A stretch of DNA of 64,000 nucleotides. Source: Planctomycetota bacterium. GTDB taxonomy: Bacteria; Planctomycetota; J058; J103. The stretch lies in contig BPJM01000005.1 of NCBI GenBank assembly GCA_026004615.1, forward strand, positions 477-64,476, given 5' to 3'. Below, piece after piece: positions 13,810-56,650 of the stretch. Made by a program: the position numbers and the translations under genes. Position 1 is the first letter of the stretch. Each line of letters begins with the position of its first letter. A model generated the notes under the pieces. The model made no database searches, had not been told where the DNA came from, and was given only the letters and a program-made list of their open reading frames with translations.

Positions 13810-14101
13810 ACCGGGCCTGTCCGGGCAATCGGGCGGGCGCCGCGGTGCCGCAACCCCATAGAAGAGATGCCCGCTCCTCTCGCCCGGCGGGGGCAGCGGC
13901 AGGCTGCGGGGCGATCGGCGCCGGGGAGCGGTGCGTGTGCCGGCGCGGTGCCGCGCGCTCCCGGCGGCCAGGACGGAAGCTCTATCCTCTCAGTAAGCAA
14001 GGGGTTGCTCTGCCGGCCGTCGTCCGTGCCGGCGCGTCCGGGCCCGGCTCGCCGCGGTGTCGTATCATGCGGGAGGACAGCAGCGGGACAGCCAGCGGAG
14101 G

Positions 14102-14473
14102 ATGGCGATGCGGCCCCGGGACGATCGGCAGGAGGAGCGCTACGAGGTCGAGGGCGAGGTGACCCTCAAGGTGCTCATGACCCGCAGCGAGGACGTACGC
14201 AGCGTGCGCGCGCGGCTGAAGAACGTGGGGATCGGCGGACTGTACGTGGAGACCGACGCCGAGATCCCGGTCGGCACCCTGGCCGATCTCGACCTGCGGC
14301 TGGAAGGGCGGCCGCTCGCCAACACGCTCGGTCTGGTCCGCTGGCTGCGCCCCGGCCAGGGCCTGGGCATCGAGTTCTTTTACTCGACCGAGGAGGAGCG
14401 CGACGCGCTGCGGGCCTACCTGGAGGGCTGGGTCCGCGAGCGCGGGCTCCGGCGCCAGGCCCCGCGCGCCTGA
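14102..14473 (+). CDS. PilZ-domain protein (c-di-GMP receptor family).
   Basis: An RxxxR-type motif (RPRDDRQEER) and a D/NxSxGG-like motif (NVGIGGLYVETD) in a ~120 aa protein. The ORF as listed begins at 14057. I chose the internal Met. Confidence 0.55.
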   Translation: MAMRPRDDRQEERYEVEGEVTLKVLMTRSEDVRSVRARLKNVGIGGLYVETDAEIPVGTLADLDLRLEGRPLANTLGLVRWLRPGQGLGIEFFYSTEEERDALRAYLEGWVRERGLRRQAPRA

Positions 14474-22953: not shown

Positions 22954-26296
<3,343 letters not shown>

Positions 26297-26653: not shown

Positions 26654-28108
26654 ATGGTCGCAGCGCGAAGGCTCGCCACGCTCGCCCTGGCCGGTCTGCT
26701 GGGGCTGGCGCTGGGCTGTCGGTCGAGCATGTCCTATTACAACGAGGGCGTCGCGGAGCTGGAGCGGCGCAACTACGAGGCCGCGATCGAGCTGTTCACC
26801 GAGGCGCTGGATGCCGACCCGCGCAGCCATCTGGCGCTGGTGAACCGGGGCTATGCGTATCTGGAGACCCAGCGGCTGCACCAGGCGCTGGAGGACTACG
26901 ACCGCGCGATCCGGCTGCTGGAAGACAGCAACACCCCCAATCCGTGGTTTTACAACCGGCGCGGCGAGGCGTACTACATGCTCGGCCGCTACGCCGAGGC
27001 GCTCGCCGACTGGCGGCGTGCGAAGGACCTGGAGGACCGGCGCGCGGCGAAGGGCATCAAGGTGCGCGTCTCGGCAGACTACCTCGCGATGCAGCAGCGG
27101 CGCGAGGAGCTGATGGTGGACGCCGAGCGCCAGGTGGCGCTCGCGCCCCCGCTCGCCACCGCGATCCCGACCACGCCGCCGGTGCTCGAACCGGCGAGCA
27201 CGCCGGCGGCGCAGCCCTCGCCCGCACCGGAGATCGCTGCTGAGGTCGCGCGCGAGGTGCCGAGCCCGGAACAGGAGCTGGCGCTCGCCGAAGCGCGGCT
27301 GGCGCACGAGGCGGCCCGCCTGGAGGCCGAGGCGCGCGCCGCGGCGGCCGCCGCCCCGCCTGCGCCGCCGGCGCCGACTGGGGCCGAGATCGAGGCGGCG
27401 CTGGCGGAGGCGCGCGCTCTGCACGGGGCGGCGCGCGCCCAGGCCGAGGCGCGGGCGGCGGCGGCGCAGCCTGCACCGCCGCCGGCCGGCCCCAGCGCGG
27501 AGGAGGTCGAGCGGGCGCTGGCAGAGGCTCGGCTCGTGCACGGGGCGGCGCGGGCCGAGGCCGAGGCGCGGGCGGCGGCGGCGCAGCCCGCACCGCCGCC
27601 GGCCGGCCCCAGCGCGGAGGAGGTCGAGCGGGCGCTGGCAGAGGCTCGGCTCGTGCACGAGGCGGCGCGGGCCGAGGCCGAGGCGCGGGCGGCGCTCGCC
27701 GCGGCGCCTGCGGCTGCTGTCCCTGCGCCCGGCGAGGCCCAGCCTGCGGCGGCCGCGCCGCGCCCGCGCCCCATCGCGGATCTGAGCGGTACCTGGGTCC
27801 GGGATGACGAGTACACCTTCACCCTGCTCGATGACGGGCGCCGGGTCGTGGGCGAGATCGTCGGGACCGAGGATTTCTCGTTCTACGAGGTCACGCTGGA
27901 GTGGACGTCGGATCGCACCCTGACGGGCTACGCGGTGCTCAAGGAAAATCTCTCGCCGTGCAAGTTCGAGACCTCCATCGCCTGGTCCGTCGACGTGGTC
28001 GACGAGGGCACGCTCGCCGCGCGGACCGAGGAGGTCGGCTGGGACGCGGAGTGCCACGAGACCGAACGCACCTGGGGGCGCCACACGTTCACGCGGTTGC
28101 CCCGCTGA
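26654..28108 (+). CDS. Lipoprotein with N-terminal TPR-like repeats, a tandem Ala/Glu/Arg-rich repeat region and a C-terminal beta-rich domain.
   Basis: An AAGGAGAGG ribosome-binding site lies 3 nt before the ATG. Lipobox LALGC|RSS. TPR-like segments (YEAAIELFTEALDADP, YDRAIRLL, YAEALADWRRA). There are 3-4 copies of a 39-aa repeat. Confidence 0.7.
   Translation: MVAARRLATLALAGLLGLALGCRSSMSYYNEGVAELERRNYEAAIELFTEALDADPRSHLALVNRGYAYLETQRLHQALEDYDRAIRLLEDSNTPNPWFYNRRGEAYYMLGRYAEALADWRRAKDLEDRRAAKGIKVRVSADYLAMQQRREELMVDAERQVALAPPLATAIPTTPPVLEPASTPAAQPSPAPEIAAEVAREVPSPEQELALAEARLAHEAARLEAEARAAAAAAPPAPPAPTGAEIEAALAEARALHGAARAQAEARAAAAQPAPPPAGPSAEEVERALAEARLVHGAARAEAEARAAAAQPAPPPAGPSAEEVERALAEARLVHEAARAEAEARAALAAAPAAAVPAPGEAQPAAAAPRPRPIADLSGTWVRDDEYTFTLLDDGRRVVGEIVGTEDFSFYEVTLEWTSDRTLTGYAVLKENLSPCKFETSIAWSVDVVDEGTLAARTEEVGWDAECHETERTWGRHTFTRLPR
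27290..27710 (+). repeat. Tandem in-frame 117-nt (39-aa) coding repeat, 3 near-identical copies plus 1 diverged copy.
   Basis: gcacggggcggcgcg...gctcggctcgtgca recurs at 27421, 27538 and 27655. Protein unit AEARAAAAQPAPPPAGPSAEEVERALAEARLVHGAAR. Confidence 0.8.
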
Positions 28109-28179
28109 GCGGTAGGTGGGGCGGGAGACAACGTTGCTCGCCGCCTGGCGGCGGGCGCAGAGGTGAGGTGGACGGGAGC

Positions 28180-30621
28180 ATGGTCGGCTCGTTGCGAGGG
28201 GAGCACAAGGGCAGGCGGCGCGCGGGAGGCGTTCTGGCTGCGGCGCTGCTGGGTGTGGCACTCGCCGGCGGTTGCTCGACGCTCGGGCCCGCCCCGGACA
28301 ACGAGGCCATCCTCGCGGAGCTGCAGGACCTCAAGCGCGAGAGCCCCTTGCCGCAGGCGATCGCGGTCGCGCCGGTCCAGGTGGACCTGGTCTATGCCCG
28401 CGAGGCGGAGGAGGGTGAGGGCGAGCAGGCCGCATCCGAGGAGGGTGCGCCGCCTGCTGGCGGTGCCGGCGCCGAGCAACCGGCAGGGCAGCCGGGCGGG
28501 CCCCAGACCGGCATGGCGCCCCTGCCGGCCGGCGCCTCCCTCGCTGCGACCGACCTCCCTCGGCTGGCCACCCGGCTGGGGATCGAGGTCCGCTACCGCC
28601 GCCCGCTGTTCCGCGAACTGCTCTTCTCCCCGCGCGATCCCCTCGAGGGGGGGCCGGTCGAGCAGCCCGGCACCGAGGATGCGGGCGCCGGCGGGCAGCC
28701 GGGTGTGCTGTACGTCTGCCCGCGCTGCCAGAACGAGGTCTCGGCGACGATCGCGCGCTGTCCGTGGTGCGGTCTCGCCTTCGCTCCCGAGCTCCCGCCG
28801 GGTGAGCCCGCATCCGCGCCGCCGCAAGCGGTGGCGGAGCAGGCGCCACCCGCCGCGACGCCTGCGCCCGCGGGCGAGGCGGTGGCGGCGCGCGCGGAGG
28901 TCGACCGCTACATCTGCTACTTCTGCGAGAGTCCGATCGAGCCCACGGCGCTGGTCTGTCCGAACTGCGGCGTCGAACTGCAGCCCGTGCCCGGCCTGCA
29001 GGGCGAGCTGGCGCGGGAGGAGCAAGGGCCACCCGGCAAGGAGGAGCGCATCGGTCGCCTGACCGTCGGGGCGTTGAAACGGCTGGCACAGTCGCGGGCC
29101 GCCTTCGGCGTGGATCCGGTGGAGGTGCAGCGCGACCTCGCGCAGCTGGTCGAGGGGCTGGGCCTGTTCAGCGAGGTGACGGTGATCAGCGAGCAGACGC
29201 TCGTCGGCAAGACCGATGCGCTGCTCGACTGGGCGGCGGGCAACTACATCGACTATCTCATGATCCCGAGGCTTCGCCGCAACGAGATCCAGTTCGTGAA
29301 GACGAACGCCTCGTGGTGGGGCGGGCTGGCGCTCTGGGTGGCCGCCTGGGTGCCCTCGTTCTGGGTGGCAGGCGAGGACTACCAGGCGGATGTGGAGCTG
29401 GAGCTGGAGGTGTGGAGCGTCCGCGCCCGCAAGCCGATGCCGCAGTGGAATCCGACGGTCAGGGGCCGGGCGGTCGCGAGTGCGGATCAGCTCGACCGGC
29501 GCCTCAATCTGTTCCCGTGGCTCGGCTGGGACTTCATCGGGGTGCCCGCGGGTTTCGCCAACCTGACCGATGGCGGCTGGCTCAATCTCAACCGCTGGAT
29601 GACGCCCAACGCCTTCGCCGACATGAAGCGCAACCTGCTCAAGCAGCTGCACGAGTACTTCGCGGTGGCGGGCGCCTATCCGCCGCCGCCGGTCGACGTA
29701 CAGGAGGTGGCGCTGCTGGTCGGCGTCCACGAGGTGCGGCGCTCGCCCGGGGTGGGGGTGCAGCGCCAGCTGCAGTTCGCGATCAACGACCTCGAGGCGA
29801 TGAAGCTCTGCTTCACCCAGGTGACCGGCTGGGACCCCGGAGCAGCAGGCGCAGCGGGGCGCGCCGGGCGGCGCAGCCGCACCGTCGCGCTTCTTCCGGG
29901 CGCGGAGAACCCCGAGCTGCAGGCGACGACGCAGAACCTCCGCAACTGGCTCAACGTCGACCTGCAGCGGCTCGGCCCGAACGACACGTTCGTCTTCTAT
30001 TTCGCGGGCTATGGCGCCGCTCTGCCGGCACCTCCCGGTCAGCAACCATCCTGGGCGGACGGCTACGAGCGCTACCTGATCACGCACGACACCGACCCGA
30101 GCCGCATCCCGGAGACCGCGTTGAACGTCGTCGAGCTGATGAATGCGATCCGCAACTGCGCAGCGCGGCGCGTGCTGATCGTGCTGGATTGCTCGTTTGC
30201 CAAGGTGCCGGAGGATCAGTCCATCGGTTCCGGCCGCACCTGGCCGACGGGCATCGCCGAGGAGCAACTCGCCAATCTCAACGACGAGTTCCTCATCGAG
30301 CTGGCCAGGCGCACCGCACCGAAGAAGTGCGTGGTGTTCGCGGCCGCGGACATCCGGCACCCGGCATACGAGAGCCAGTTCACCCGGCCGCCCAACCACG
30401 GGCTGTTGACCGCGGCCTTCCTGGAGGGCGTGGCCGAGGGCCGGGCGGATGTCGAGGTGGGCGACGGCAACGGGGCGGTGACGCTGTTCGAGCTGGAGAA
30501 GTTCATCAGCTCGCGCTATCGGGCCTTCCAGGCGGCCTCCGGCGTGGCGGTGCGCTTCGTCTCCGGCGGCGATCTCGGCGACATGGAGATCGTGCTGCGC
30601 CCCAAGCCGGCGGAGCAGTGA
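28180..30621 (+). CDS. Lipoprotein with an acidic linker, a double zinc ribbon, a hydrophobic segment and a C-terminal caspase-like (peptidase C14 fold) domain whose catalytic His is replaced by Tyr.
   Basis: Lipobox LAGGC|ST. Zinc ribbons CPRCQNE..CPWCG and CYFCESP..CPNCG. Caspase pattern FVFYFAGYG...YLITHDTD...RRVLIVLDCSFA, which has Y in place of the His of the HG motif, and the Cys is retained. Confidence 0.7.
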   Translation: MVGSLRGEHKGRRRAGGVLAAALLGVALAGGCSTLGPAPDNEAILAELQDLKRESPLPQAIAVAPVQVDLVYAREAEEGEGEQAASEEGAPPAGGAGAEQPAGQPGGPQTGMAPLPAGASLAATDLPRLATRLGIEVRYRRPLFRELLFSPRDPLEGGPVEQPGTEDAGAGGQPGVLYVCPRCQNEVSATIARCPWCGLAFAPELPPGEPASAPPQAVAEQAPPAATPAPAGEAVAARAEVDRYICYFCESPIEPTALVCPNCGVELQPVPGLQGELAREEQGPPGKEERIGRLTVGALKRLAQSRAAFGVDPVEVQRDLAQLVEGLGLFSEVTVISEQTLVGKTDALLDWAAGNYIDYLMIPRLRRNEIQFVKTNASWWGGLALWVAAWVPSFWVAGEDYQADVELELEVWSVRARKPMPQWNPTVRGRAVASADQLDRRLNLFPWLGWDFIGVPAGFANLTDGGWLNLNRWMTPNAFADMKRNLLKQLHEYFAVAGAYPPPPVDVQEVALLVGVHEVRRSPGVGVQRQLQFAINDLEAMKLCFTQVTGWDPGAAGAAGRAGRRSRTVALLPGAENPELQATTQNLRNWLNVDLQRLGPNDTFVFYFAGYGAALPAPPGQQPSWADGYERYLITHDTDPSRIPETALNVVELMNAIRNCAARRVLIVLDCSFAKVPEDQSIGSGRTWPTGIAEEQLANLNDEFLIELARRTAPKKCVVFAAADIRHPAYESQFTRPPNHGLLTAAFLEGVAEGRADVEVGDGNGAVTLFELEKFISSRYRAFQAASGVAVRFVSGGDLGDMEIVLRPKPAEQ

Positions 30622-33385: not shown

Positions 33386-36106
33386 TCAGCGAGCAGGCGC
33401 GTGCGGGGACACCCGGCCACCGAGCAGCGTGAACAGCAGCACGCACAGGCACAGCGCCGCCAGCACGGGCACCAGCGGGTTGGCGCGCAGGAAACTGAGC
33501 AGCTTCTCGCGGCGGAACAGCTCCGGCGCCCAGCTCGCGGCCGCCCGGTACTGTTCGAAGGCCAGCCGCCAGTCGCCCGCGGCCATGGCCTCGGCGCCGC
33601 GCGCGCCATGGATGGCGGCGAGGCTCTGCGCCACCTGGGCCTCCAGGTTGGCATCCAGCGCGCGCGCCGCGTAGAGAAAACGGATCGCATCCTCCAGCGG
33701 CCGGCCCTCGCGCACCACCCGGTAGTCCCCGGTGGGCGCCAGGCGCTGCACCATGCTGGAGTGGACCCAGCCCTGCAGGCCGGCGGCGTCGACGACCTGC
33801 AGCCACGGCCCGACGGAACCACCACCCGGATGCGGCGCCAGGAGCTCGCCGGGCACCAGTGAGCGCGCGCTGCCGTACGCCTCACCCGGGCCGCGGCGCA
33901 GCAGTGGCTGCTCGCGCAGCTCCAGCCCGATAGTGTAGCACAGGCGCGCGAGCTGCCGGCGCAACTCTCCGTGCTCGGGTGCCAGGAAATACGCCCGCAG
34001 CAGCGCTCCGACCTTCCAGCGCCGCGCCTCCACTCGCGGCGGCGGGCTGTCCGCTGCCTCCAGCCAGCGCACGGCCAGGCGTTCCGCCTGATCCTGCAGG
34101 CGGCGCCGCGTTTCGGCCAGGCTCTGGAGCGCGTTCTGGGCCCAGGCGAGGTGTGTGCGGATCTCATCTGCCGTGCGGCCCCGCTGGTGGCTCACGATCT
34201 TGCCGAGGAGCTGGCGCCGGCGCTCCTGCTCGGGCAAGGCCGGCAGCACGGCGTCGAAGAAGTGGGAGTCGGCCTTCGGCAGCTCGAGCGCCTGGGCCAG
34301 CTCGAGCAGGGTGCCCGGGTGCACCTCCTCCAGCGCCAGCAGGACCTGCTGCGCCGCGCCAGGCTGCTCGTCCCGGAGCGCGTTCGCCAGCCACTGGACC
34401 GCCTGCAGTCGCCGCGCCTGGAAGACGGCGCGTGCCGCGAGCTGGACCTCGCGGTCGGGGTGCTGTGTGAGCGGCAGCGCGGCGCGAAAGGCGATCTCCG
34501 CCTCCGGGCGCAGCAGCTCCAGCAGCTCGAGCGCGCGCACAAGCTGCGTCTCGGTCCGCATCGCGCGCGGACTCGTGGCGCCGGCCGCGTCCGGCACCGC
34601 GATCGCTGCGGCGGGCTTCGCCAGCACGCCGAGCAGGTAGTCCTGCGCCTGGCGTCCGAACTGCGCGAACGCCTCCGCCAGCGGGCGGCTCGTCCCCGCT
34701 GCCCCCAGGCAGTAGTGGTAGAACAGCAGCGGCAGGTAGCTGGCGTTGCCGCTCTCGACCATGGCGGCCAGCGCCGCCCGGCGGAGCGACTGCTCGCCCC
34801 GCTCGTATGCCTGGACCAGCGCTGGCACGGCCCGCTCGTCCCCGAAGGGGACGAACTGCTCGGGCGCGTAGATCGGCTCGATCACGAGGTCCTGCGGTTG
34901 CAACAGACGGGTGCGCCAGCTCCAGGCGACCGGGGTCTCGGGCAGCATCGGCGGCAGTGTCAGCTGCTCGCTCTTTGCCTGCATGCCCACCTCGACCACC
35001 GTGGGCCGTCCCTCCAGCAGGACCGCGCGATGGTAGCTGCCCTGGTACGTGAACTGTCTTCCCAGCCGTGCCAGGCGCTCGAAGTCCTCGCCGTCGGCGG
35101 TCAGCTGAGCCCGGATGCGGACCAGCTGGTCAGGTTCGACCAGCAACTCTCCCCGGGCTGTCACGCGCAGCCGCGCTCCCACGAGCAGGTGCCCCGGGCG
35201 CCGGTGCACCGCTGTCCCGGTCACGACCCAGAGCTGTGCGGCCGGGTCCAGGCTGCCCTGGCCCACCTCCACCGCCACGGACAGCAACACCGGCTGGAGC
35301 GGGCGAGCGTCCCCGGGAGCGGTCGCGGGCCCGGCGAGCGCCCGGGGGTCGATTGCCTGGAGGCGGCGGATCTCGGCGCGCGGGATGGTGACGCTCCGCT
35401 CCTCGGCGGTCCGGAGCACGACCGCCTGCTCGGTCACCCGCTCGACGTAGCCGCGCACCCCGTCGATCTCGAGCGCTGCACCGACCTTCAACAGCTCGGC
35501 GAAAGCCTGCCCGGACGCCGGCTCCCCTTCCGTGCCCCCGCGCTCCGCGTCGCGTTCGAGCACTTCATACGCGCGGATATCCCCCAGTCCGAGCACGACC
35601 ACCCCCGCGCTGCGCCCCTCTGGATCGAGCAGGTACAGGTCCGGCGGATCGTAGCGCTGCAGCCGCCAGCGCACCGGGCCGCTGCCGCGGTCCACGACGA
35701 CCAGCGCTCCGGGCGGCGTCGCACGGATGCGGCGGTCCATCTCCACCGCCAGGGGCGAGGAGAGGGCGGCGTTGCCGGGGGCCGGCTCTGTTCCGCTCTG
35801 CTGGCCGAGCTGCACCTGCACCACGCGCTCGTGTTCGTCCAGCAGCAGCCGCACCGAGCGGCCGCGGGGCAGCAGCTCCGCGCGGTGCAGGCGCTGCAGT
35901 TCGGCGAGTGCCTCCGGGCTCAGCTCGAAGCTACGACCGCCGCGCAGCATAACGACCGGCCGCTCGCCTGGCTGGCGGGGGACGACGTGGAAGTCGTACT
36001 GGCCTTCGACCGCGGAGGGCGGTGGCTCGTCCTGGGCGAGGGCCGGGGACGCGCTACAGGTCAAGATCAAAAACGCCAGTAGGATGCGGAGCATACCGTA
36101 GAGCAT
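33386..36106 (-). CDS. Large (906 aa) secreted or membrane-anchored protein with a signal peptide and a C-terminal TM segment, hypothetical.
   Basis: Signal peptide MLRILLAFLILTCSASPALA|QDE. Long helical repeat-like regions. C-terminal TM LVPVLAALCLCVLLFTLLGG. Confidence 0.55.
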   Translation of the reverse strand: MLYGMLRILLAFLILTCSASPALAQDEPPPSAVEGQYDFHVVPRQPGERPVVMLRGGRSFELSPEALAELQRLHRAELLPRGRSVRLLLDEHERVVQVQLGQQSGTEPAPGNAALSSPLAVEMDRRIRATPPGALVVVDRGSGPVRWRLQRYDPPDLYLLDPEGRSAGVVVLGLGDIRAYEVLERDAERGGTEGEPASGQAFAELLKVGAALEIDGVRGYVERVTEQAVVLRTAEERSVTIPRAEIRRLQAIDPRALAGPATAPGDARPLQPVLLSVAVEVGQGSLDPAAQLWVVTGTAVHRRPGHLLVGARLRVTARGELLVEPDQLVRIRAQLTADGEDFERLARLGRQFTYQGSYHRAVLLEGRPTVVEVGMQAKSEQLTLPPMLPETPVAWSWRTRLLQPQDLVIEPIYAPEQFVPFGDERAVPALVQAYERGEQSLRRAALAAMVESGNASYLPLLFYHYCLGAAGTSRPLAEAFAQFGRQAQDYLLGVLAKPAAAIAVPDAAGATSPRAMRTETQLVRALELLELLRPEAEIAFRAALPLTQHPDREVQLAARAVFQARRLQAVQWLANALRDEQPGAAQQVLLALEEVHPGTLLELAQALELPKADSHFFDAVLPALPEQERRRQLLGKIVSHQRGRTADEIRTHLAWAQNALQSLAETRRRLQDQAERLAVRWLEAADSPPPRVEARRWKVGALLRAYFLAPEHGELRRQLARLCYTIGLELREQPLLRRGPGEAYGSARSLVPGELLAPHPGGGSVGPWLQVVDAAGLQGWVHSSMVQRLAPTGDYRVVREGRPLEDAIRFLYAARALDANLEAQVAQSLAAIHGARGAEAMAAGDWRLAFEQYRAAASWAPELFRREKLLSFLRANPLVPVLAALCLCVLLFTLLGGRVSPHAPAR

Positions 36107-36228: not shown

Positions 36229-37932
36229 ATGTCCATCTCGAAACTGCTGTTCGGCGAGATCGCGCTCAAGAAGAAGCTGGTCACCAAGGACCAGGTCGAG
36301 GAGTGCCTCGAGATCCAGAAGCGCCTCAAGGAGATGGGCATCAACAAGACGCTCGGCGCCATCATGCACGACAAGAAGTACCTCTCGATGGTGGAGATCA
36401 AGGAGATCCTTCGTGAGATGACCGGCACGAAGGACTGGAACGCCATCGAGGGCTACGAGATCCTCGGCAAGCTCGGCAAGGGCGGCATGGGCAGCGTGTA
36501 CAAGGCGCGCCATACCCGGCTGGACAAGCTGGTCGCGCTCAAGGTGTTGCCGCCGGAGCTGGCGGGCGACCAGGAGTACCTCGACCGGTTCATGCGCGAG
36601 GCCCACGCCGCCGCCAAGCTCAATCACCCCCACATCGTGCAGGCGCTCGATGTCGGCGAGAGCTACGGCTACCACTACTTCGTCATGGAGTACGTCGAGG
36701 GCCGCACGGTCAAGGAGATGATCGACGAGCAGGGCACGCTCGACGAGCTGACCTCGCTCCGCATCATCGCCCAGATGGCCGAGGCGCTGGAGCATGCGTG
36801 GCGCAACGAGATCGTGCACCGCGACATCAAGCCCTCGAACATCATCGTCACCCGGGCCGGGGTGGCCAAGCTGTGCGACCTGGGGCTGGCGAAGACGGTC
36901 GACGATGATTCCACGATCACCCAGACCGGCGTGATCATGGGGACCCCGTTCTACCTCTCGCCCGAGCAGGCACGCAGCGAACCGCTCGACTGCCGGAGCG
37001 ACATCTACTCGCTCGGAGTCACCCTGTTCCACATGGTGACGGGCCAGGTGCCTTTCACCGGCAACTCCGCGGCGACGATCCTGTACAAGCACATCTTCCT
37101 CGACCCGCCCAACCCCAAGAGCCTCAACCCGTCGCTGAGCGACGGGACGGTGAAGTTGCTGCGCCGCATGCTCGCCAAGCGCAAGGAGGACCGGTTCGCG
37201 GACCCGACCGAGCTGCTCGCTGCGGTGCGCGAGGTGATCGCACAGCTCCGTCCCGAGGCGGTCACCGAGCAGGTGCGCGGCGACGCCGAAGCGCACGGAG
37301 CGCTGCTCGCTTCCCGCGCGGAGGCGAGCGGAGCCAGCAGCGGTGCGCTCGCCCGCACCGTCGATCTCACCTCGCCCCACCCCTCGGTGGCGGCGGCGGA
37401 GGCGGGAGCGCCGCCAGGGCAGGGCAGCGCGGCGGTGACGGTGGGCGGGCGCTGGTCGCGCAGTCGCCTGGTGGCGGCGAGTTTTGCCACGCTGGGGCTG
37501 GCCGCCACCACCGCCCTGCTCGCCGCCAATGTGCTGCTTCCGGTCGAGCGCCCGGCCGCCGAGGCAGCCCTCGACCCCGTCGCCCTTCTCATGCCCCTGG
37601 ACCGGCCGCGGCCCGAGGTGGAGGCGGCACTGCGGCGCGGACAGGAGCTGCTGCAGGCACATCGCTATGCCGAGGCCCTGGCGGTGATCGATCAGCTGCC
37701 GGCCGAGCCGCCGCTCGAACCGGCGGAGCTGGGGGCCGTGCTCCGGCTGCGCGAGCAGGTGCTCCTGGCGGCCATGAGGCGGCCCGAGGAGCTTCGCCGG
37801 CGCCACGAAGCCGGCGAGGACGTGCTGGCCGAGGTGCGCGCCCTGGGGTTGTCGGCGCTGGCCGACGAGCTGCGCAGGCACGAGGAGTGGCTGGGGCGCC
37901 AGCGCCCGCCCGCCCCCATGCCCGAGCGCTGA
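36229..37932 (+). CDS. Ser/Thr protein kinase with an N-terminal MshEN/T2SSE_N-like domain and a C-terminal TM plus TPR-like tail.
   Basis: N-terminus: MSISKLLFGEIALKKKLVTKDQVEECLEIQKR...LGAIMHDKKYLSMVEIKEIL. Kinase: GKGGMGSVYKARH, HRDIKPSNI, DLGLAK, GTPFYLSPEQ. A GGAGGG ribosome-binding site precedes the ATG. Confidence 0.85.
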   Translation: MSISKLLFGEIALKKKLVTKDQVEECLEIQKRLKEMGINKTLGAIMHDKKYLSMVEIKEILREMTGTKDWNAIEGYEILGKLGKGGMGSVYKARHTRLDKLVALKVLPPELAGDQEYLDRFMREAHAAAKLNHPHIVQALDVGESYGYHYFVMEYVEGRTVKEMIDEQGTLDELTSLRIIAQMAEALEHAWRNEIVHRDIKPSNIIVTRAGVAKLCDLGLAKTVDDDSTITQTGVIMGTPFYLSPEQARSEPLDCRSDIYSLGVTLFHMVTGQVPFTGNSAATILYKHIFLDPPNPKSLNPSLSDGTVKLLRRMLAKRKEDRFADPTELLAAVREVIAQLRPEAVTEQVRGDAEAHGALLASRAEASGASSGALARTVDLTSPHPSVAAAEAGAPPGQGSAAVTVGGRWSRSRLVAASFATLGLAATTALLAANVLLPVERPAAEAALDPVALLMPLDRPRPEVEAALRRGQELLQAHRYAEALAVIDQLPAEPPLEPAELGAVLRLREQVLLAAMRRPEELRRRHEAGEDVLAEVRALGLSALADELRRHEEWLGRQRPPAPMPER

Positions 37933-37944: not shown

Positions 37945-40341
37945 CTAGCGGTTGGCGCGCCGCTCGATCGCCTCGATCGCCTGCTTGAGCTTGTTCTTGA
38001 TGTAGTGGTGGGCCTCGCGCTCGTAGGCCGCCTGGAGCATGGGCAGGTCGCTGGTCTCGCCCACCCGCGCCAGGTACCTCGCAGCCTCGGCACGATTGTT
38101 GAGCCGATCGTCGCGTTGCAGCACGTCGGTGAAGAACGCCATCGCCTCGCGGCCCGCCTTGCCAGCCAGAGCCCGGATGGCGGTCGAGCGCACGGAGGCA
38201 TTCTGCTCCTGGCGCGCCAGGTCGGCCAGAAATGCGGTATCCTGGGGGCCCGCCGCCTTGCCCTCCAGCGCGCGGATCGCCTCTATACGCGCATTCGGAT
38301 CGGAATCGCCGCGCGCGATGTCCTGCAACGCCGCCACGCCCGCACCGCCCTCGGCCGAGCCCAGGGCGCGGATGAGGTACTTCTTGATGCGTGCGTCCTG
38401 CTCGCTCCTGGCCAGCGCCTCTAGCTCGGCGACGTCCTCGGGCCGGTCGAGCTTCTGCAGCATGAACAGCAGGCGCAGCTTCTCGCCCGCATCCTGCGTG
38501 GTGCGGATCGCATCGATGAGGTCGCGCGTGCTCGCGCGCCCCTCGATCGCGCGCAGCACGTAGCCGAGCGAGACCTTGACGTTGAACTGGCGTTCGTTGT
38601 CGTAGGCCTGTTTGAGCGCATCGGCGATCTCGCGGCCGCGAGCGACCAGCGCCTGCTCTTCACGGCGGATCGCTTCCTGGTCGCGCGCACGGTGGGCGCG
38701 CCGCAATCCCTCCAGGAGGTCCCCCGGCACCGGTTCGGCCTCGCTGTCTTCCTGGGGCGCCGCCTCCGGGTCGGGTTCTGCCGCCGCGCCGAGCGCGGGC
38801 TGCGCCGCCGGCGCGGCGGCCGCCCGCACCGGCGGGGCGGGCGCCGCTGCAGCGGCCGGCGGCGCCGGCGCCCGGGATGGCTGCTCGGCACGGCGCAGGC
38901 TCTGGACGGACAGCGGCTCGACGGGCCGGAACGCCGCCGGCGGCACGGGTGCGGCGATCCGCGTGCTGCTCGCCCGCAGCGGCTGGATGTCGTCCGCGCC
39001 GATGAGCTTGTACACCATGTACACGCACGCGATGAGCACGACCCCGGCTGCGGCGTATCCGAACCACTCGCGCCGCCGCGCCCAGCGCCCGCCGAGCGGC
39101 GCCACCGGTTGCGCGGCGAAGGGGCCCGCAGCAAGCGCGGCGGTCGCCTCGCTCTGCGGCTCGCCGCCGCTGGCGGCGGGGGCGGCTGCGGCCGCGCCGC
39201 CCCCGCCCGCACCTGCAAGGGCCACCGCCGGCCGAATCCCGCTCTGCACCGCGGCCTCGGCAGCGCTCTCCTCGGCGGCCGGGGCGGTCAGCAGCGCCGC
39301 GAGCGCCGGCCGCTCGGCCCGCGCCTCGGCCAACAGCCGTGCGTAGGCCTTCGCCTTGCCGCGCAGCACGCGATCCATCTCCTCGAAGTCGCGCCGCACC
39401 GCCTCGAGCTTCTCCAGCAGCCCCGCGACGCGCCGATCGGCTACCTCCTCGGTCTGGCGCAGCTGCTCGCGCAGCCGCGCGATCTCCTCGTCGCGCTGGC
39501 GCAGCAGCTGCTCGGTTTCGGCGTACCGCTTGGCGAAGCTGTGGATGCGCTCCTTGGCCCGCTCGAGCTGTTCGACGAAGGACTCGGTGGCCAGGCTCAG
39601 CCCGTCGCGCTTGCGTCGCAGCTCCTGCTCCAGCTCCTGCAGGCGCGCGCGCAGATCGACGTTCTCCTCGCGCTCGCGCTCCAGCTCCGCGCGCAGGCGA
39701 TCCAGCTCGGCAGCACTCCCTGCCGCCTCGAGGGGGGGCGGGGCCGGAGCGGGGGCGGCAGCCGGCTCGTCCGCCTGCTCGGGCGCGGCGGCAGCCTCCA
39801 CGCCCGCCGTCGCAGCCATGGGGTCGATGCCCGCGGGCGGCGAAAGGGGCGGAGCGGCAGGCGCTGCCGCCGGCGCGCTCGCCCCCTGCGGCGCCGCTGG
39901 CGGCGCGGAGCCGCTGCGCGCGAGCAGCGCCTGCACGGCCGTTGCGGCGTCGGAGCCCTCTTGCGCGGCCGCAGCGCCTGTCGCCGCCGCCGCCCCGGCT
40001 GGCTCTTGTCCCGCCGCGGCACCTGCCGGCGCGGCCTGCAGCGGTACGGACCCGGCCTGGGCGGCGAAGACAAGCTCCACCTGGCCGATGCGGATGCGAT
40101 CCCCATCGCTGAGCGCCTTGTGCAGGACGCGGCGATCGTTCACCTCCACGCCGCCCCGGCTCTGCAGGTCCTCCACCCAGTACCGCCCGCCGCGGTGGTA
40201 CACCCGGGCGTGGCTCCACTCGACACCGGGGTCCGTGCAGGTGAGCCCGGAGGCCTCATCGCTGCCGATGATCACGCTGCCGTCGCCGAGTCGGACGGAG
40301 TGCCCGCGGCGACTACCGGAGACGACGTGGAGCGCTGCCAT
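37945..40341 (-). CDS. FHA-domain protein with a coiled coil, one TM segment and C-terminal HEAT (PBS-lyase-like) repeats.
   Basis: FHA: LHVVSGSRRGHSVRLGDGSVIIGSDEASGLTCTDPGVEWSHARVYHRGGRYWVEDLQSRGGVEVNDRRV. Coiled coil: ELDRLRAELEREREENVDLRARLQELEQELRRK. TM: WFGYAAAGVVLIACVYMVYKLI. HEAT-like: ARIKKYLIRALGS..NARIEAIRALEG..SVRSTAIRALAG. Start at the ATG at 40341. Confidence 0.8.
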   Translation of the reverse strand: MAALHVVSGSRRGHSVRLGDGSVIIGSDEASGLTCTDPGVEWSHARVYHRGGRYWVEDLQSRGGVEVNDRRVLHKALSDGDRIRIGQVELVFAAQAGSVPLQAAPAGAAAGQEPAGAAAATGAAAAQEGSDAATAVQALLARSGSAPPAAPQGASAPAAAPAAPPLSPPAGIDPMAATAGVEAAAAPEQADEPAAAPAPAPPPLEAAGSAAELDRLRAELEREREENVDLRARLQELEQELRRKRDGLSLATESFVEQLERAKERIHSFAKRYAETEQLLRQRDEEIARLREQLRQTEEVADRRVAGLLEKLEAVRRDFEEMDRVLRGKAKAYARLLAEARAERPALAALLTAPAAEESAAEAAVQSGIRPAVALAGAGGGGAAAAAPAASGGEPQSEATAALAAGPFAAQPVAPLGGRWARRREWFGYAAAGVVLIACVYMVYKLIGADDIQPLRASSTRIAAPVPPAAFRPVEPLSVQSLRRAEQPSRAPAPPAAAAAPAPPVRAAAAPAAQPALGAAAEPDPEAAPQEDSEAEPVPGDLLEGLRRAHRARDQEAIRREEQALVARGREIADALKQAYDNERQFNVKVSLGYVLRAIEGRASTRDLIDAIRTTQDAGEKLRLLFMLQKLDRPEDVAELEALARSEQDARIKKYLIRALGSAEGGAGVAALQDIARGDSDPNARIEAIRALEGKAAGPQDTAFLADLARQEQNASVRSTAIRALAGKAGREAMAFFTDVLQRDDRLNNRAEAARYLARVGETSDLPMLQAAYEREAHHYIKNKLKQAIEAIERRANR

Positions 40342-40587
40342 GGCTCGCTCGGTCCTCGCCCTGGGGCTCGCGGTGGCCTCGGTCACGGTCGAACTGCCCC
40401 CTTCATCATCCTGATCCGACCCGCCCGAACACGGGGCGCGCCGGCAGCACGCCGGGCCAACCCGCGGGCGGCACCGGCCCCGAGTGTGCACCGGTTGGGA
40501 CGCCCCGGGCGCGCACCGGGTTCAGCGGCCGGCACCGGGCATGCTTGCGCCGGCGGCTGGCCTGCCCTGGCCGCAGGTGGCGCAGTG

Positions 40588-45731: not shown

Positions 45732-46772
45732 TCAGGCCTCGAGCTGCGCATCGGCGGCCACCCGCGCGCGCATCGCGCTCAGGTGGGCATGCAGCGCTTC
45801 GCGAACCTCGGCGGGCTCCAGCACCTCGGCGCCCGGACCGTAGCGGAGGATCTCGTTGAGCAGCCAGGTCAGGCTCTTGGCGGGGATGGTGACGATGAGC
45901 GAACCGTCGGGCGCCTCCTCGCGCAGCGGCGCCGGCACCTGCTCGCGGATCCAGCGCACCTGCTCGCCCCGTACCCGCACCCGGGCGCGATAGCGTACGT
46001 CGCGGGTGAAGTCCATGGCGCGCCGTTCGTAGCGCGCGAGATCGAAGCCCGCGGGCGGACGGAAGCGCTGCTCGAGCGCGCGTGCCGCCCGCAGCCGGTC
46101 GACGCGGAAGCTGCGCACCTCTTCGGAGCGCTTGCAGTAGGCCACCAGATAGTACTCGCCGCCCTTGTCCACGAAGCCCAGCGGCTGGACCACCCGCGGG
46201 GCGGTCGCATCCGAGGAGGCGGAGTAGTATTCGATCTCGACCTCGCGCCGCTGCTCGACCGCCGGCACCAGGACCTCGAGGACCTCTTTGATGCGGGTGC
46301 GCCAGGGAGGCACGCCGAACGCCGGTCCCTTGCCGGCCTGGGTCGCGAGCCGCGCGGCCGCTGCCTCCTCGCGGGTGGTACGCGCCAGCAGACCGCCAGA
46401 CCGCCCCAGGATCGCGTGGATACGGTCGAGCAGTGAGCGCCGCGCCTCTGCGTAGACCGGGTCGCCCCCCGGTGGCAGCGACTCGATGGCGAGCTTGAGC
46501 GCCAGCGCTTCGGTGAGGGTGAAGCGGATCGGCCGGCGGAAGTGCTCGGCGAACCGGATCTCGACCCGGCCATCCTCGACGTAGACCCCGATGTAGTCGT
46601 CGGGCAGGTAGGGCGGCACCCCGCACAACAGCACCCGGTCGAGATCCGCCATGATCTCCGCGGGCGAGGCACCGAGGTAGCGCGCCAGGTCCTCCAGCGC
46701 CACGCCCTGGTGCTTGCGCACGTAGGGGATGAGCGCCAGGATGCGCTGGATGCGGTGCTTGGGATCGCTCAC
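45732..46772 (-). CDS. WYL-domain transcriptional regulator (HTH-WYL-WCX, PafB/PafC-like), copy 2.
   Basis: wHTH: RIQRILALIPYVRKHQGVALEDLARYLGASPAEIMADL. WYL: EYYSASSDATAPRVVQPLGFVDKGGEYYLVAYC...RSFRVDRL. A GTG start at 46772 overlaps the upstream paralog's TGA (GTGA). Confidence 0.8.
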   Translation of the reverse strand: MSDPKHRIQRILALIPYVRKHQGVALEDLARYLGASPAEIMADLDRVLLCGVPPYLPDDYIGVYVEDGRVEIRFAEHFRRPIRFTLTEALALKLAIESLPPGGDPVYAEARRSLLDRIHAILGRSGGLLARTTREEAAAARLATQAGKGPAFGVPPWRTRIKEVLEVLVPAVEQRREVEIEYYSASSDATAPRVVQPLGFVDKGGEYYLVAYCKRSEEVRSFRVDRLRAARALEQRFRPPAGFDLARYERRAMDFTRDVRYRARVRVRGEQVRWIREQVPAPLREEAPDGSLIVTIPAKSLTWLLNEILRYGPGAEVLEPAEVREALHAHLSAMRARVAADAQLEA

Positions 46773-48124: not shown

Positions 48125-48823
48125 CTACCGGTGCTCCCCTTCGCCGTCCCGGCTCGGGCCGGCGGGCAACTCCGCCCCGGGCTGTTCCGTCACGGCGGTG
48201 ACCTGCCAGCTCGGCGGCGCCGGCGTCTCGGCGGCGACGGTGCCGCCGCCCAGCAGCGTCTCGCTGACGGAACGCAGCAGGCTTGCCGGCTGCAACGCGA
48301 GCAGCGCGCCCACCGCGAGCAGCGCCGCCGCCACCGCTCCGGCCAGCGCGCCGGAGCGCCGCCGTTGCCGCCGCTCCCACGCTGCCAGGCGCTCTTCGGC
48401 CCGCACCTGCGCCTCCGCCTGCACCATGCCGAAGCGGTCGGCGAGCACGCGCGTCGCCTCCGACCAGCGCTGCTCCAGGCGCGCGCTGCTCTCGCGGATC
48501 GCCCGCACCACCTCGGGCAGGCTGTGGTGCAGCTCGCGGCGCAGCAGCTCGCCGGGACGAGCGGCGCACCGGCCGGACCGTTCGATCGAGCGCTGCACGG
48601 CGTCCAGGGCCTCGAGCTGGCGCTCCGCCTCCAGCGGCAGGACCTCGAGCGAGCGCGCCAGCCCCTCCAACCGCTCCATGAGGCGCTGCGCGCGCTGGTT
48701 CTGCGCCTCCAGCGTGCGGCCGACCTCTTCGATCAGCTCGGTGACCCGCCGGAAGCTGTGCCCGAGCGAGATGATGTCGGTGGGGCTCCAGGCGGCCTCC
48801 AGCTGCGCGGGCAACAGCGGCAT
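48125..48823 (-). CDS. Hypothetical coiled-coil protein with a C-terminal TM segment.
   Basis: Helical heptad-like N-terminus. TM: ALAGAVAAALLAVGALLAL. Weak evidence; the ORF is protein-like in composition. Confidence 0.4.
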   Translation of the reverse strand: MPLLPAQLEAAWSPTDIISLGHSFRRVTELIEEVGRTLEAQNQRAQRLMERLEGLARSLEVLPLEAERQLEALDAVQRSIERSGRCAARPGELLRRELHHSLPEVVRAIRESSARLEQRWSEATRVLADRFGMVQAEAQVRAEERLAAWERRQRRRSGALAGAVAAALLAVGALLALQPASLLRSVSETLLGGGTVAAETPAPPSWQVTAVTEQPGAELPAGPSRDGEGEHR

Positions 48824-49088: not shown

Positions 49089-51056
49089 CTACTGGATCCC
49101 CAGCCGCTGGCGCACCTGGGCGAGCAGGCGCTCGCGCCGCAGCTCCAGCCCGGGATCGTCGGTGGGGACGGCGTCCCGCAGGTAATCGAAGGCGACCTCG
49201 GGCTTGCCCGCGGCGAGCGCCTGTTCGGCCAGTTCCACCGCCCGGCGCATGGCCTCGCGCGCTGCGGCGTCGACGTGCGAGCGCAGCCGTGCGACCTCCG
49301 CGGCATGCGAGGTGCCCTGGGCCTCGCGCGCCAGTTCCGCCAGGCGCTGGCGCGCCTCGGCGAAGCGTTCCTGGGCCAGCAGCTCGGCCAGCTCCCCCGC
49401 CTGCAGCGCGGCCAGCCGCCCGCCCACCCACCGCTCGCGCACCTCGTCGGGCGCGGGCAGCGCGGCCCGGGCCTGCTCCGCCGTGGACTGCGTGTGCCGC
49501 GCCGCCTCACCGGCGCCTGGACGCCGATTCTGCAGCAGCGCCAGCGCCAGCGCCGCGGCGACGGTACCTGCCACCAGCACCGCGGCCAGCAGCCCCCGCC
49601 GGCCCACGCGGGCGGGCGGCCCTCCGAGCCGCCGCTCCTCGGGCGAGGCGAGCGGCAGCCGCCGCGCGCGTGGCAGGGCGAGCCGGCCGCTGGCCGAGTC
49701 CGCGCGCCGCTCGGCGGCAAAGGGGTTCTTGCCCTTGCGGATGGCGATGATGTCCCGCACCAGCTCCTCGGCGGTCTGGTAGCGGCGCTCGGGGTCCTTG
49801 TGCATCATGCGCTCGAGCAGTTTCGCCACCGGACGGCTCACCCCCGGGGCGCGGCGGCGGATGGGGATCGGCTCCTCGGCGATGTGGCGCGCCATGATGG
49901 TGGCGGGGTTGTCGCCGACGAACGGCGGTTCGCCCGCGAGCATGTGGTAGAGAGTGGCGCCGAGGCTGTAGATGTCGCTCCGCACGTCGACGTCGGTCAC
50001 CCCCCGCGCCAGCTCCGGCGAGACGTAGTAGGGCGTGCCGAGCGTCTTGCCCTCGGTGGTCAACGAGCAATCGCTGGTCAGCTGCTTGGACAGGCCCAGG
50101 TCGGTCAGCTTCGCCACCCCGTTCGGGGTGACGAGGATGTTCTCCGGTTTGACGTCGCGGTGCACGATATGTCGGGACGAGGCGTGCGCGAGCGCCTTGG
50201 CGACCTGCAGCACGATCGCCAGCGCCTCGTCCTCGTCGAACGGACCGTCCTCCTTGATCATCTCGGCGACCGACCAGCCGTCGACGTATTCCATGGCGTA
50301 GTAGTACAGCCCGTTGGATTCCCCGACATCGATCGCCGAGACGATGTTGGGGTGGTTCAACGAACCGGCGAGCTTGGCCTCGCGCACGAACCGCTTGAGG
50401 AAGCGGGCATGGGAGGCGTAGCGCGGCGCCAGCACCTTGAGCGCCACCTCCCGCCGCAGCGACTTCTGCACCGCGCGGTAGACCACCCCCATGCCGCCCT
50501 GTCCGCGGCGCTCCAGCAGCTTGTAGCCCGCGATGGGATCCCGGGTGCGCTGCAGCCGCAGCACGTACTTGGCCTGGGTGGCGGTGAGCAGGCCCAGCTT
50601 GACCGCGATCTTGCCGATCTTGTGCCGCCTGCCCTCCGCGCGGAGCCGCCGCTGCACCCGCAGCGCCTCCTCGATCTGCGGCGCCGTGCAGAAACGCTGC
50701 AGCACCGCGAGCTCCCCGAACAGCAGCTCGCCCTCGGCGCCGACGGCGGGCGCCGGCTCGACCGGGGCGCGAGCAGCGGAGCCGGCGGGCAGGGGCGGCA
50801 GGGTGGCCGCAGCGGAGCTGCTGCCGCCGCGCAGCGCCTCCATCTCGCCGTCGGAGGAGTACAGGGGAGGCGGTGCGAGGTGCGCCACCGCGTCGCTGCC
50901 GTCACGGTCCTCCTCGGCGCCGGCGGGCTCCGCGGCCCCGCCCGCGTGCGCCGGCACGGCGGGCCCACCCTGCTCCGGCGGCGGGCTGTCCGTGCTGGCG
51001 CGCGCCGCCAGACCGTCGGTCCCGGTCGTGCTCTGCGGTTGCGGGTCGTCTCGCAT
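49089..51056 (-). CDS. Ser/Thr protein kinase, a paralog of the 36229 kinase. It has an N-terminal MshEN/T2SSE_N-like domain, then the kinase, then a TM segment and a helical tail.
   Basis: LLFGELAVLQRFCTAPQIEEALRVQRRL...IGKIAVKLGLLTATQAKYVL. Kinase: GQGGMGVVYRAVQ, HRDVKPENI, DLGLSK, GTPYYVSPE. TM: GLLAAVLVAGTVAAALALALL. Confidence 0.85.
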   Translation of the reverse strand: MRDDPQPQSTTGTDGLAARASTDSPPPEQGGPAVPAHAGGAAEPAGAEEDRDGSDAVAHLAPPPLYSSDGEMEALRGGSSSAAATLPPLPAGSAARAPVEPAPAVGAEGELLFGELAVLQRFCTAPQIEEALRVQRRLRAEGRRHKIGKIAVKLGLLTATQAKYVLRLQRTRDPIAGYKLLERRGQGGMGVVYRAVQKSLRREVALKVLAPRYASHARFLKRFVREAKLAGSLNHPNIVSAIDVGESNGLYYYAMEYVDGWSVAEMIKEDGPFDEDEALAIVLQVAKALAHASSRHIVHRDVKPENILVTPNGVAKLTDLGLSKQLTSDCSLTTEGKTLGTPYYVSPELARGVTDVDVRSDIYSLGATLYHMLAGEPPFVGDNPATIMARHIAEEPIPIRRRAPGVSRPVAKLLERMMHKDPERRYQTAEELVRDIIAIRKGKNPFAAERRADSASGRLALPRARRLPLASPEERRLGGPPARVGRRGLLAAVLVAGTVAAALALALLQNRRPGAGEAARHTQSTAEQARAALPAPDEVRERWVGGRLAALQAGELAELLAQERFAEARQRLAELAREAQGTSHAAEVARLRSHVDAAAREAMRRAVELAEQALAAGKPEVAFDYLRDAVPTDDPGLELRRERLLAQVRQRLGIQ

Positions 51057-56336: not shown

Positions 56337-56439
56337 GGCCAGGACCTCCTTCCCGTCCGCGCGGGTCGAGGGTTGCGGGGATCCGCCGCCGGGCGGCGGG
56401 CCCGTGTGCGGTCGCGGGGAACGGGTCTTCTGGCTTCCG

Positions 56440-56650
56440 GATCGCCCTACTCGCCGCGCCTTCCCGTGTGCCCGCTCCGAGCGGACCGCACAGTGGCCGC
56501 CTGCGGCTTTCGTCCCCGGTCACAGCGGCGGGACCGCGACGGACTCGCACCGTCTTCCCCCGGCTTCCCGGACCGACCGAACCGATTGTCGAGCGCGCCA
56601 TGATAGCGGGGGCTAGCGCCGCATCAAGCCTCTTTTCAAGTGCAGGCGCG
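56440..56650 (-). promoter_or_regulatory. Cobalamin (AdoCbl) riboswitch.
   Basis: Minus-strand RNA reads GGGAAGCCGGGGGAAGAC-GGUGCGAGUCC-GUC-GCGGUCCCGCCGCUGUGACCGGGGACGAAAGCC-GCAGGCG-GCCACUG-...-GGGAAGGCG. That matches the conserved GGUGnnAnUCC, CCCGCnGCUGUGAcCGGGGA, B12-box GCCACUG and 3' GGGAAGGC elements. A GC-rich hairpin follows (CCGCCGCCCGGCGGCGG, about 56395-56420), then AGGAGG and a GTG. Confidence 0.8.

Follow-up and report, generated by a model that had tools for sequence, protein, structure and literature searches.

The gene at positions 36229 to 37932 of a 64,000-nt stretch of Planctomycetota DNA (contig BPJM01000005.1 of assembly GCA_026004615.1, forward strand; the whole stretch is called the window and all coordinates refer to it) encodes a Hanks-type Ser/Thr kinase, K1, that starts with an MshEN_N domain, i.e., a module related to the cyclic di-GMP (c-di-GMP) receptor domain of MshE. 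We read the K1 N-terminus as an MshEN_N bundle from a family that probably senses c-di-GMP, with the K1 copy itself being a degenerate weak binder or non-binder, and assign this joint reading a probability of about 0.6. A preliminary description of the window had proposed a MshEN-like N-terminus on a Ser/Thr kinase and, from it, a c-di-GMP-responsive enzyme. The fusion of an MshEN_N-type module with an intact Hanks kinase is confirmed by profile (NF053729, hhalign) and structure (Foldseek) comparisons. The responsiveness is not supported for the K1 copy, given residues T41, K50 and M64 of its second motif and the loss-of-binding data from PilF. As such, a Ser/Thr kinase that senses c-di-GMP is not a new idea; Wang et al. 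2016 had already raised it. The K1 features are as follows.

36229..37932, + strand: K1, a 567-aa membrane-anchored Hanks-type Ser/Thr kinase (open reading frame (ORF) call, Pfam Pkinase, identical protein P0002)
36247..36318, + strand: MshEN_N motif I, residues 7-30, helix a1-turn-a2 hairpin (in register with residues 9-32 of Vibrio cholerae MshE, VcMshE)
36319..36348, + strand: spacer KRLKEMGINK, residues 31-40 (a 6-residue insertion in the profile alignments)
36349..36420, + strand: MshEN_N motif II, residues 41-64, helix a3-turn-a4 hairpin (profile alignment)
36421..36453, + strand: linker TGTKDWNAIEG, residues 65-75, preceding the conserved GY at the start of kinase strand b1
36454..37200, + strand: protein kinase catalytic domain, residues 76-324 (Pfam Pkinase PF00069, E 3e-55)
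37468..37545, + strand: predicted single transmembrane (TM) helix, residues ~414-439 (Kyte-Doolittle scan)
37546..37929, + strand: helical C-terminal domain of 128 aa, 3' of the TM helix and presumably extracytoplasmic

K1 opens with an ATG at 36229, preceded 12 nt upstream by a GGAGG, and its ORF ends at 37932 (G+C of the window 73.6%). The same Met opens the K1 orthologues (M[SHQ]ISKLLFGE...), and K1 shares 100% identity with KatS3mg102_1727 of a Planctomycetota metagenome-assembled genome (MAG), which is P0002 in the list above. The catalytic motifs are complete, i.e., GKGGMGSV, VALK, HRDIKPSN, DLG and TPFYLSPE at residues 83, 102, 197, 217 and 239, respectively, such that all hallmarks of a Hanks-type Ser/Thr kinase (Gly-rich loop, VAxK Lys, HRDxKxxN, DxG, (S/A)PE) are present. 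From the N- to the C-terminus, K1 consists of MshEN_N, a linker of ~10 residues, kinase, TM helix and C-terminal domain. Since a single TM segment is followed by a 128-aa helical tail, we classify K1 as a receptor-type, membrane-anchored Hanks kinase. Based on the predicted topology, the N-terminal 75 residues and the kinase domain are presumably cytoplasmic and the C-terminal domain outside.

Residues 1-64, which correspond exactly to coordinates 36229-36420, form two tandem 24-residue helix-turn-helix motifs (residues 7-30 and 41-64), in agreement with the motif plus second half-repeat that had been pointed out before. In the following, I-n and II-n denote position n of the first and second motif. 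Motif I reads LFGEIALKKKLVTKDQVEECLEIQ, spaced as L-F-G-EI-AL-KK-K-LV-TKDQ-V-EEC-L-EI-Q. Measured against the strict consensus of Wang 2016, it fits 6/11 specified positions, and 7/11 against the extended (R/K/L) consensus of PMC11731258; every hydrophobic position, Gly3 and Gln24 fit, the exception being position 10 with K instead of G. Motif II reads TLGAIMHDKKYLSMVEIKEILREM, spaced as T-L-G-AI-MH-DK-K-YL-SMVE-I-KEI-L-RE-M, and reaches only 4/11 strict positions. It is degenerate at positions 1 (T), 7 (H), 10 (K) and 24 (M), where the family majority shows K/R, V/L/I, G and Q, respectively. Residue by residue, K1 and VcMshE pair as L7/R9, F8/L10, G9/G11, K16/G18, V23/L25, L27/L29 and Q30/Q32 in motif I and as T41/R38, L42/L39, G43/G40, K50/G47, I57/L54, L61/L58 and M64/Q61 in motif II. 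The spacer between the motifs has 10 residues in K1 and in its paralogue K2 (see below), compared to 5 in MshE and 7 in PilF GSPII-C. When screening the 507 six-frame ORFs of the window with a motif regular expression, only K1 and K2 are matched.

The homology of this region to MshEN_N is well supported by sequence profiles. NCBIfam NF053729.1 is a 53-position model named 'cyclic di-GMP-binding domain-containing protein, MshE-related' with a curated cut-off of 38 bits. On the isolated K1 N-terminus it yields E 2.3e-6 and 27.3 bits (residues 8-63, model positions 2-52), and 21.9 bits on full-length K1; neither K1 nor K2 reaches the curated cut-off. From 67 modules of the kinase family described below, 65 match the model at E<=1e-3 and about 19 score at about the cut-off. 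We further compiled a profile, A1, from the alignment of these 67 modules. Against PDB sequences, A1 matches Thermus thermophilus PilF (6F8L, 8e-15), VcMshE (5HTL, 4.5e-5), Geobacter PilB (~1e-4) and the c-di-GMP-binding GSPII-B domain of PilF (7e-4). In the MshE and PilF alignments the two motifs are in register, and the spacer contains a 6-residue insertion. Aligning A1 with 14 bona fide MshEN_N domains by hhalign gives a probability of 98.6% (E 1.2e-15, 56 columns), again with the motifs in register; 7/14 of these domains are exact PDB sequences and 7/14 stem from optical character recognition (OCR) text of the Wang 2016 supplement.

Residues 1-75 are assigned no Pfam domain apart from a weak FumaraseC_C match, which we set aside as a generic helical hairpin. 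A phmmer search of the K1 N-terminus against the PDB returns only noise (E>1), i.e., the family profile is required, and a word-indexed homologue search with the 75-aa module yields one 90%-identical fragment, the query being too short for the index. The preliminary description had named PF05157 (T2SSE_N) or an MshEN profile as a check on its proposal. PF05157 has no match to K1 even at E<=10, while NF053729 is significant though under its curated cut-off, as given above. According to Wang 2016 (Suppl. Fig. 3c, PMC5013675), the PF05157 model begins within motif II and has most of its length in the N1 subdomain. Its silence is thus uninformative because K1 is without the N1 subdomain and the kinase already begins at residue 76. 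By this architecture, K1 belongs to the 'MshEN_N only' class of Wang 2016.

The predicted structure agrees with the profiles. The AlphaFold2 (AF2) model of the K1 N-terminus shows four helices (3-14, 20-35, 42-48, 54-71) at a mean predicted local distance difference test (pLDDT) of 81.7, where helix a2 extends to residue 35 and hence into the spacer. Among PDB structures, the nine best Foldseek matches comprise only MshE and PilF GSPII domains, with root-mean-square deviations (rmsd) of 0.8-2.6 Å, or 0.8-1.3 Å for the eight crystal structures among them. The best match, 5htl_B, superposes at 0.8 Å over 59 columns (TM-score 0.70, probability 1.00). Foldseek E-values are weak (>0.1) because the domain is only 60 residues long. 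Taken together, we consider it well supported that K1 residues 1 to ~65 are a genuine MshEN_N domain.

To place K1 within its family, we used residues 1-340 as query of a homologue search, which returned thousands of kinases, and examined the best 120. Counting K2, the module lies directly upstream of the kinase in 115 of them; over all 122 homologues in the set, 115 have the module. Every named homologue among the 120 comes from a Planctomycetota or Brocadiae MAG. As consensus of the family we obtain ..SFGeIAvelGlvTeeQveEaLeIQkklkelGv.pKkLGEILvEKGYLTeeQveeIlreQ.., in which F8, G9, A12, Q30 and G37 are conserved at >=90%; that is, the spacer Gly (G37) is nearly invariant across the kinase family. 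The same level (>=90%) holds for G75 and Y76 at the junction to the kinase. Among 114 kinase-family modules, Gln is found at I-24 in 105 (92%) and at II-24 in 90 (79%), K/R at II-1 in 84 and G at II-10 in 79, while about one third of the family has Ser at I-1. The residues of K1, i.e., T at II-1 (12 modules), K at II-10 (13) and M at II-24 (12), are confined to K1 and its nearest relatives. Throughout the K1 relatives from 86% down to ~48% identity, II-1 is T or P and II-24 is M or V. Given Gln at II-24 in the outgroups (MshE, PilF, PilB) as well as in the bulk of the family, this is most simply explained by a loss in the K1 subfamily. On the other hand, the K1 N-terminal region is very strongly conserved within the subfamily, which argues that the bundle retains some function. 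What is new here is the N-terminal, MshEN_N-only architecture and its abundance in Planctomycetota, as well as the family signature of F-G..A in motif I plus a 10-11-residue spacer with an invariant Gly. Two of the kinases (P0115 and P0116) carry two tandem MshEN_N modules.

The module is not restricted to kinases. Screening 1.84 billion cluster representatives with A1 yields 12,842 matching proteins at the E<=1e-3 level, of which 2,900 reach E<=1e-10. Its best matches hold 2-8 tandem module copies by our recount (up to 9 matched stretches are listed), and among the top 150 matches the kinase motif HRDxKP is found in 25 and one cluster is a PilT-like ATPase. Over 582 module copies in other proteins, Gln occupies I-24 in 475 and II-24 in 370. 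Within 80 representative proteins, Pfam assigns the module to the alpha-clip part of DUF4388/PATAN in 43/80 and otherwise to weak FumaraseC_C hairpin matches. Named examples matched by A1 are annotated as 'hypothetical protein'. Since the module is common and unannotated and most copies remain under the curated cut-off of NF053729, a calibrated model would improve annotation. The non-kinase Planctomycetota proteins with several copies (among P0122-P0271) often carry zinc ribbons (Zn_ribbon_8, DZR).

The determinants of c-di-GMP binding by MshEN domains have been worked out experimentally. Gly3 and the following residue offer backbone amides to the guanine, the hydrophobic residues at positions 2, 17 and 21 build two triangular clusters beneath the bases, and Gln24 of each motif contacts ribose and phosphate (PMC5013675, PMC11731258). 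Position 1 stacks on the base, with R, K or L being functional; the K167L variant of PilF GSPII-B has a Kd of 2 nM (PMC11731258). In the same domain, Q190E shifts the Kd from ~6 nM to the MshEN range (~500 nM) and Q190E+Q218E is a full knock-out (PMC11731258). For the non-binder PilF GSPII-A, measurable binding required that both Gln were restored and the Ser at II-1 was replaced, and constructs with Ser at II-1 wholly lost binding (PMC12002112). XpsE lost c-di-GMP binding by similar changes. Projected onto K1, the half-site of motif I is complete, with L7, F8, G9, V23, L27 and Q30 all kept (position 1 by the extended R/K/L consensus) and Leu being favourable at position 1. The half-site of motif II keeps L42, G43, I57 and L61 and is without the stacking residue (T41), the turn Gly (K50) and the phosphate/ribose-binding Gln (M64); both turn glycines are Lys in K1. 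Given T41, K50 and M64, K1 is most likely a weak binder or non-binder. Since experimentally defined key positions are missing in K1, motif resemblance alone over-predicts c-di-GMP binding.

Before weighing the alternatives, we note a local resemblance in the profile: A1 positions 16-42 (K1 ~15-41; Glvt.eqveEaleiqkkmrelGv.P) resemble the consensus of pentatricopeptide repeats (PPR) with ~10 bits per repeat. This segment, helix a2 plus loop, inflates whole-protein E-values against designer PPR proteins, and we judge the resemblance to be a convergent helical-hairpin pattern. PPR identity was rejected on this ground.

How far does the evidence discriminate between the joint reading and its rivals? 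That the whole region resembles MshEN by chance, i.e., that it is an unrelated generic hairpin of the PPR or FumaraseC_C kind, is highly improbable. Such a view could invoke the designer PPR proteins that top the PDB list of A1 by total score, the weak FumaraseC_C match and the Foldseek E-values above 0.1 of this short domain. However, the PPR totals add up ~10-bit partial matches of query positions 16-42 to each of 9-11 identical repeats, while the MshE and PilF matches span both motifs in register with significant E-values from a single stretch, and none of the nine best structural matches lies outside the GSPII domains. Improbable as well, though to a lesser degree, is that the module serves family-wide as a nucleotide-independent element of protein-protein interaction or dimerisation, akin to the alpha-clip, with a signature that is structural only. 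The 43/80 representatives with a DUF4388/PATAN alpha-clip match (positions 36-76), the action of PATAN regulators via PilB/PilC binding (bioRxiv 2021.06.11.447907), the MshEN homologues XpsE and PilF GSPII-A that fail to bind c-di-GMP, and the Ser at I-1 in about a third of the family all point in this direction. Against it stands the conservation of the surface-exposed Gln at position 24 within and beyond the kinases (92% and 79%; 475/582 and 370/582, as above), a residue that contacts the ligand and has no obvious structural role; this conservation speaks for ligand binding across the family as a whole. The 19/67 modules at about the cut-off of a model for the c-di-GMP motif argue likewise.

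The most relevant alternative is that the K1 bundle itself binds c-di-GMP at physiological concentrations, which would make K1 a c-di-GMP-responsive kinase. Fold and register agree with MshEN, the first half-site carries a Leu that is linked to very high affinity in PilF, and c-di-GMP is in use in this organism, as the PilZ gene of the window shows. Several further points likewise weigh against calling K1 a poor binder. Single changes of Arg9 or Gln32 in MshE cost at most about 5-fold (Wang 2016, PMC5013675), so the combined penalty in K1 could leave micromolar binding. Both K1 motifs retain Gly3 as well as all hydrophobic cluster residues. In addition, the GSPII-A comparison construct also had Ala at II-3 (PMC12002112), which K1 does not. 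Nevertheless, T41 and M64 occupy two of the positions whose restoration GSPII-A binding required, the turn Gly is replaced by K50 and the score stays under the curated NF053729 cut-off. Moreover, T/P and M/V are fixed subfamily-wide where the remaining family shows K/R and Q, which looks like a functional shift. We therefore consider physiologically relevant c-di-GMP binding by K1 unlikely. For K2, which keeps the key contacts, we see about even odds, and for the canonical family members even to slightly better odds.

In the joint reading, K1 residues 1 to ~65 would form a four-helix bundle of the MshEN_N type, equivalent to the GSPII N-subdomain or 'alpha-clip' module, and most family members keep the contact signature, i.e., hydrophobic-Gly at 2-3, hydrophobics at 17/21, Gln24 and K/R at II-1. 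In such canonical members, the N-termini of helices a1 and a3 and the Gln residues of helices a2 and a4 would probably clamp one c-di-GMP molecule between them. As in PilF, ligand binding would unwind the first helical turn of a1, and it would staple a1/a3 to a2/a4. As a result, a4 and the linker could be repositioned such that the kinase N-lobe, and with it kinase activity, or the dimerisation of the kinase is modulated. The kinase would then integrate a cytoplasmic second-messenger input with a signal sensed by the extracytoplasmic C-terminal domain. The bundle of K1 itself is probably a ligand-independent regulatory or docking element. A further point against this picture comes from the AF2 model of K1 residues 1-340 (pLDDT 89.6, predicted TM-score 0.78): residues 61-70 have a pLDDT of only 62, which does not support a fixed bundle-kinase interface and leaves the allosteric route hypothetical.

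A more far-reaching version is tentative, and we lean against it: receptor-type Hanks kinases gated directly by c-di-GMP may be spread Planctomycetota-wide, with K2 and the canonical members as true sensors and the K1 subfamily as an offshoot that either binds through one half-site (perhaps with altered specificity) or was released from c-di-GMP control. If this gating holds, these would be the first Ser/Thr kinases under c-di-GMP control. Provided that canonical members bind c-di-GMP, the second messenger would be linked directly to Ser/Thr phosphorylation in a phylum with almost unstudied signalling. Our literature search on c-di-GMP and Hanks-type kinases turned up no characterised c-di-GMP receptor kinase.

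Compared to known systems, K1 is closest in fold to V. cholerae MshE (MshEN, 5HTL; PMC5013675), with which it shares the two tandem 24-residue motifs and the four-helix bundle (predicted fold superposed at 0.8 Å over 59 columns), Gly3 in both motifs, the hydrophobics at 2, 17 and 21 and the Gln24 of motif I. In contrast to MshE, K1 has neither the MshEN_C/T2SSE_N1 subdomain nor a T2SSE ATPase. Its motif I shows F-G..A instead of L-G..L, the spacer has 10 instead of 5 residues, L7/T41 replace R9/R38, Lys replaces both turn glycines and M64 replaces Q61. The T. thermophilus PilF domains GSPII-A/-B/-C (8PDK, 9G1W, 6F8L; PMC11731258, PMC12002112) include the domain that the family profile matches best by sequence, namely GSPII-C, whose motifs I+II score 38 bits in a single stretch. 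GSPII-B demonstrates nanomolar binding with Leu or Lys at position 1, and K1 has Leu in motif I. GSPII-A keeps the fold and lost binding via changes at II-1 and position 24, which is the same pattern as in K1. The PilF domains differ in that they sit on a traffic ATPase with a ligand-contacting C-terminal subdomain, whereas the K1 bundle runs straight into the kinase.

Fusions of MshEN to Ser/Thr protein kinases were already listed by Wang 2016 (PMC5013675), who suggested a c-di-GMP role in protein phosphorylation. Among them, PKN11 of Stigmatella aurantiaca (STAUR_4477; Pkinase-MshEN-UNK-REC, Wang 2016 Suppl. Table 4) is like K1 in combining a MshEN-type domain with a Hanks-type Ser/Thr kinase. 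By its published architecture, PKN11 has the kinase first, a full MshEN and a REC domain and is from Myxococcales, while K1 is from Planctomycetota. Cyanothece cce_1044, a (MshEN_N)2 protein (Wang 2016), resembles K1 in having MshEN_N without the N1 subdomain, and tandem copies also occur in the K1 family. Such MshEN_N-only proteins are stand-alone or fused to other outputs, and MshEN_N-containing constructs are reported to bind c-di-GMP (Wang 2016). Finally, the alpha-clip of PATAN/DUF4388 (Makarova et al. 2006, as cited in bioRxiv 2021.06.11.447907) is likewise described as a pair of repeat units, each with two antiparallel helices. In many proteins with several copies, the K1 family profile coincides with DUF4388 positions 36-76; in K1 and K2 themselves DUF4388 (PF14332) has no match and the PATAN core is missing, i.e., only the alpha-clip-like module is common. 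We know of no ligand of the alpha-clip.

The window holds a second kinase of this type as well as a further c-di-GMP-related gene:

49089..51056, - strand: K2, paralogous kinase with module, kinase (residues 178-433), TM helix (~487-509) and helical tail (Pfam, hydrophobicity scan)
50550..50723, - strand: MshEN_N module of K2, residues 112-169 (family hidden Markov model (HMM), regular expression, NF053729)
14057..14473, + strand: PilZ-domain protein (PF07238, E 2.7e-9; RQEER and NVGIGG motifs)

Both had been named in the preliminary description, as a paralogue of the same architecture at 49089-51056 and a PilZ gene at 14102, and both are recovered, K2 being encoded on the minus strand. The K2 module consists of motif I LFGELAVLQRFCTAPQIEEALRVQ, spacer RRLRAEGRRH and motif II KIGKIAVKLGLLTATQAKYVLRLQ, the latter fitting the relaxed plus extended consensus fully. 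A family HMM built without K2 finds it with 51.5 bits (E 4.6e-16) and NF053729 with 19.8 bits (E 4.9e-4), and the N-terminal modules of K1 and K2 match each other within the window (phmmer E 2e-7). K2 keeps L..Q in motif I and K..G..Q in motif II, with R at I-10 and A at II-17. As it retains the key contacts, K2 is a better c-di-GMP-sensor candidate than K1, judged by these positions only; on NF053729, K1 scores higher than K2 (27.3 vs 19.8 bits). K2 has 655 aa if its first ATG (51056) is used; alternative starts are GTG 50957, GTG 50888 and ATG 50843. Counted from the first ATG, K2 residues 1-111 (50724-51056, - strand) place a Pro/Ala/Gly-rich extension of ~105 residues before the module; the G+C content at third codon positions (GC3) is high throughout and the start is uncertain. 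In most homologues the module lies within ~20 residues of the start, and a few have longer N-terminal extensions.

The PilZ gene is the only further c-di-GMP-related gene detected in the window. Pfam scans of the likely genes find no GGDEF, EAL or HD-GYP domain, and among RNA elements Rfam reports only a cobalamin riboswitch in the window, no c-di-GMP riboswitch. A HisKA/HATPase_c histidine kinase gene (14540-15328, + strand) follows 66 bp after the PilZ gene, with which it may form a pair.

The direct neighbours of K1 are:

33386-36106, - strand: 906-aa protein with weak HEAT, SH3 and mechanosensitive (MS)-channel beta-domain matches, divergent from K1 across a 122-bp intergenic region
37945-40491, - strand: protein with FHA, coiled-coil, TM and HEAT-repeat parts, convergent with K1, its stop codon beginning 13 bp past the last base of K1 (12-bp gap)

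Both are kept at the locus of the 86%-identical orthologue (L004). At 72% identity (the P0007 contig) only the divergent HEAT/SH3 gene is still beside the kinase, and at 55-57% identity neither neighbour adjoins it. The neighbourhood of K1 holds no operon partner that accounts for its function. It is possible that the HEAT/SH3-like 906-aa protein is a functional partner of K1. The FHA protein is a plausible candidate for a phospho-threonine reader or substrate of K1, although the link is weak.

Some further observations concern the rest of the window. A third Hanks-type kinase gene is located at 23099-26296 (+ strand, ~1065-1112 aa); its product combines Pkinase (residues 140-427) with a C-terminal FGE-sulfatase (SUMF1-like) domain and is without the MshEN_N module. 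At 27901-30621 (+ strand) lies the gene of a caspase-like protein (Peptidase_C14) that has double zinc ribbons. The position of the cobalamin riboswitch (RF00174, 73.7 bits) is 56424-56559 (- strand). Upstream of it, the same strand holds the FecCD gene at 57430-58269 and, at 58513-59535, that of a periplasmic binding protein. The next downstream ORF (54796-55971, 391 aa, no Pfam match) may be a B12-regulated gene. A gene for a WYL/WCX-domain regulator is located at 46769-48001 (- strand), and K2 together with a 232-aa coiled-coil ORF (48125-48823) lies just downstream of the WYL gene region.

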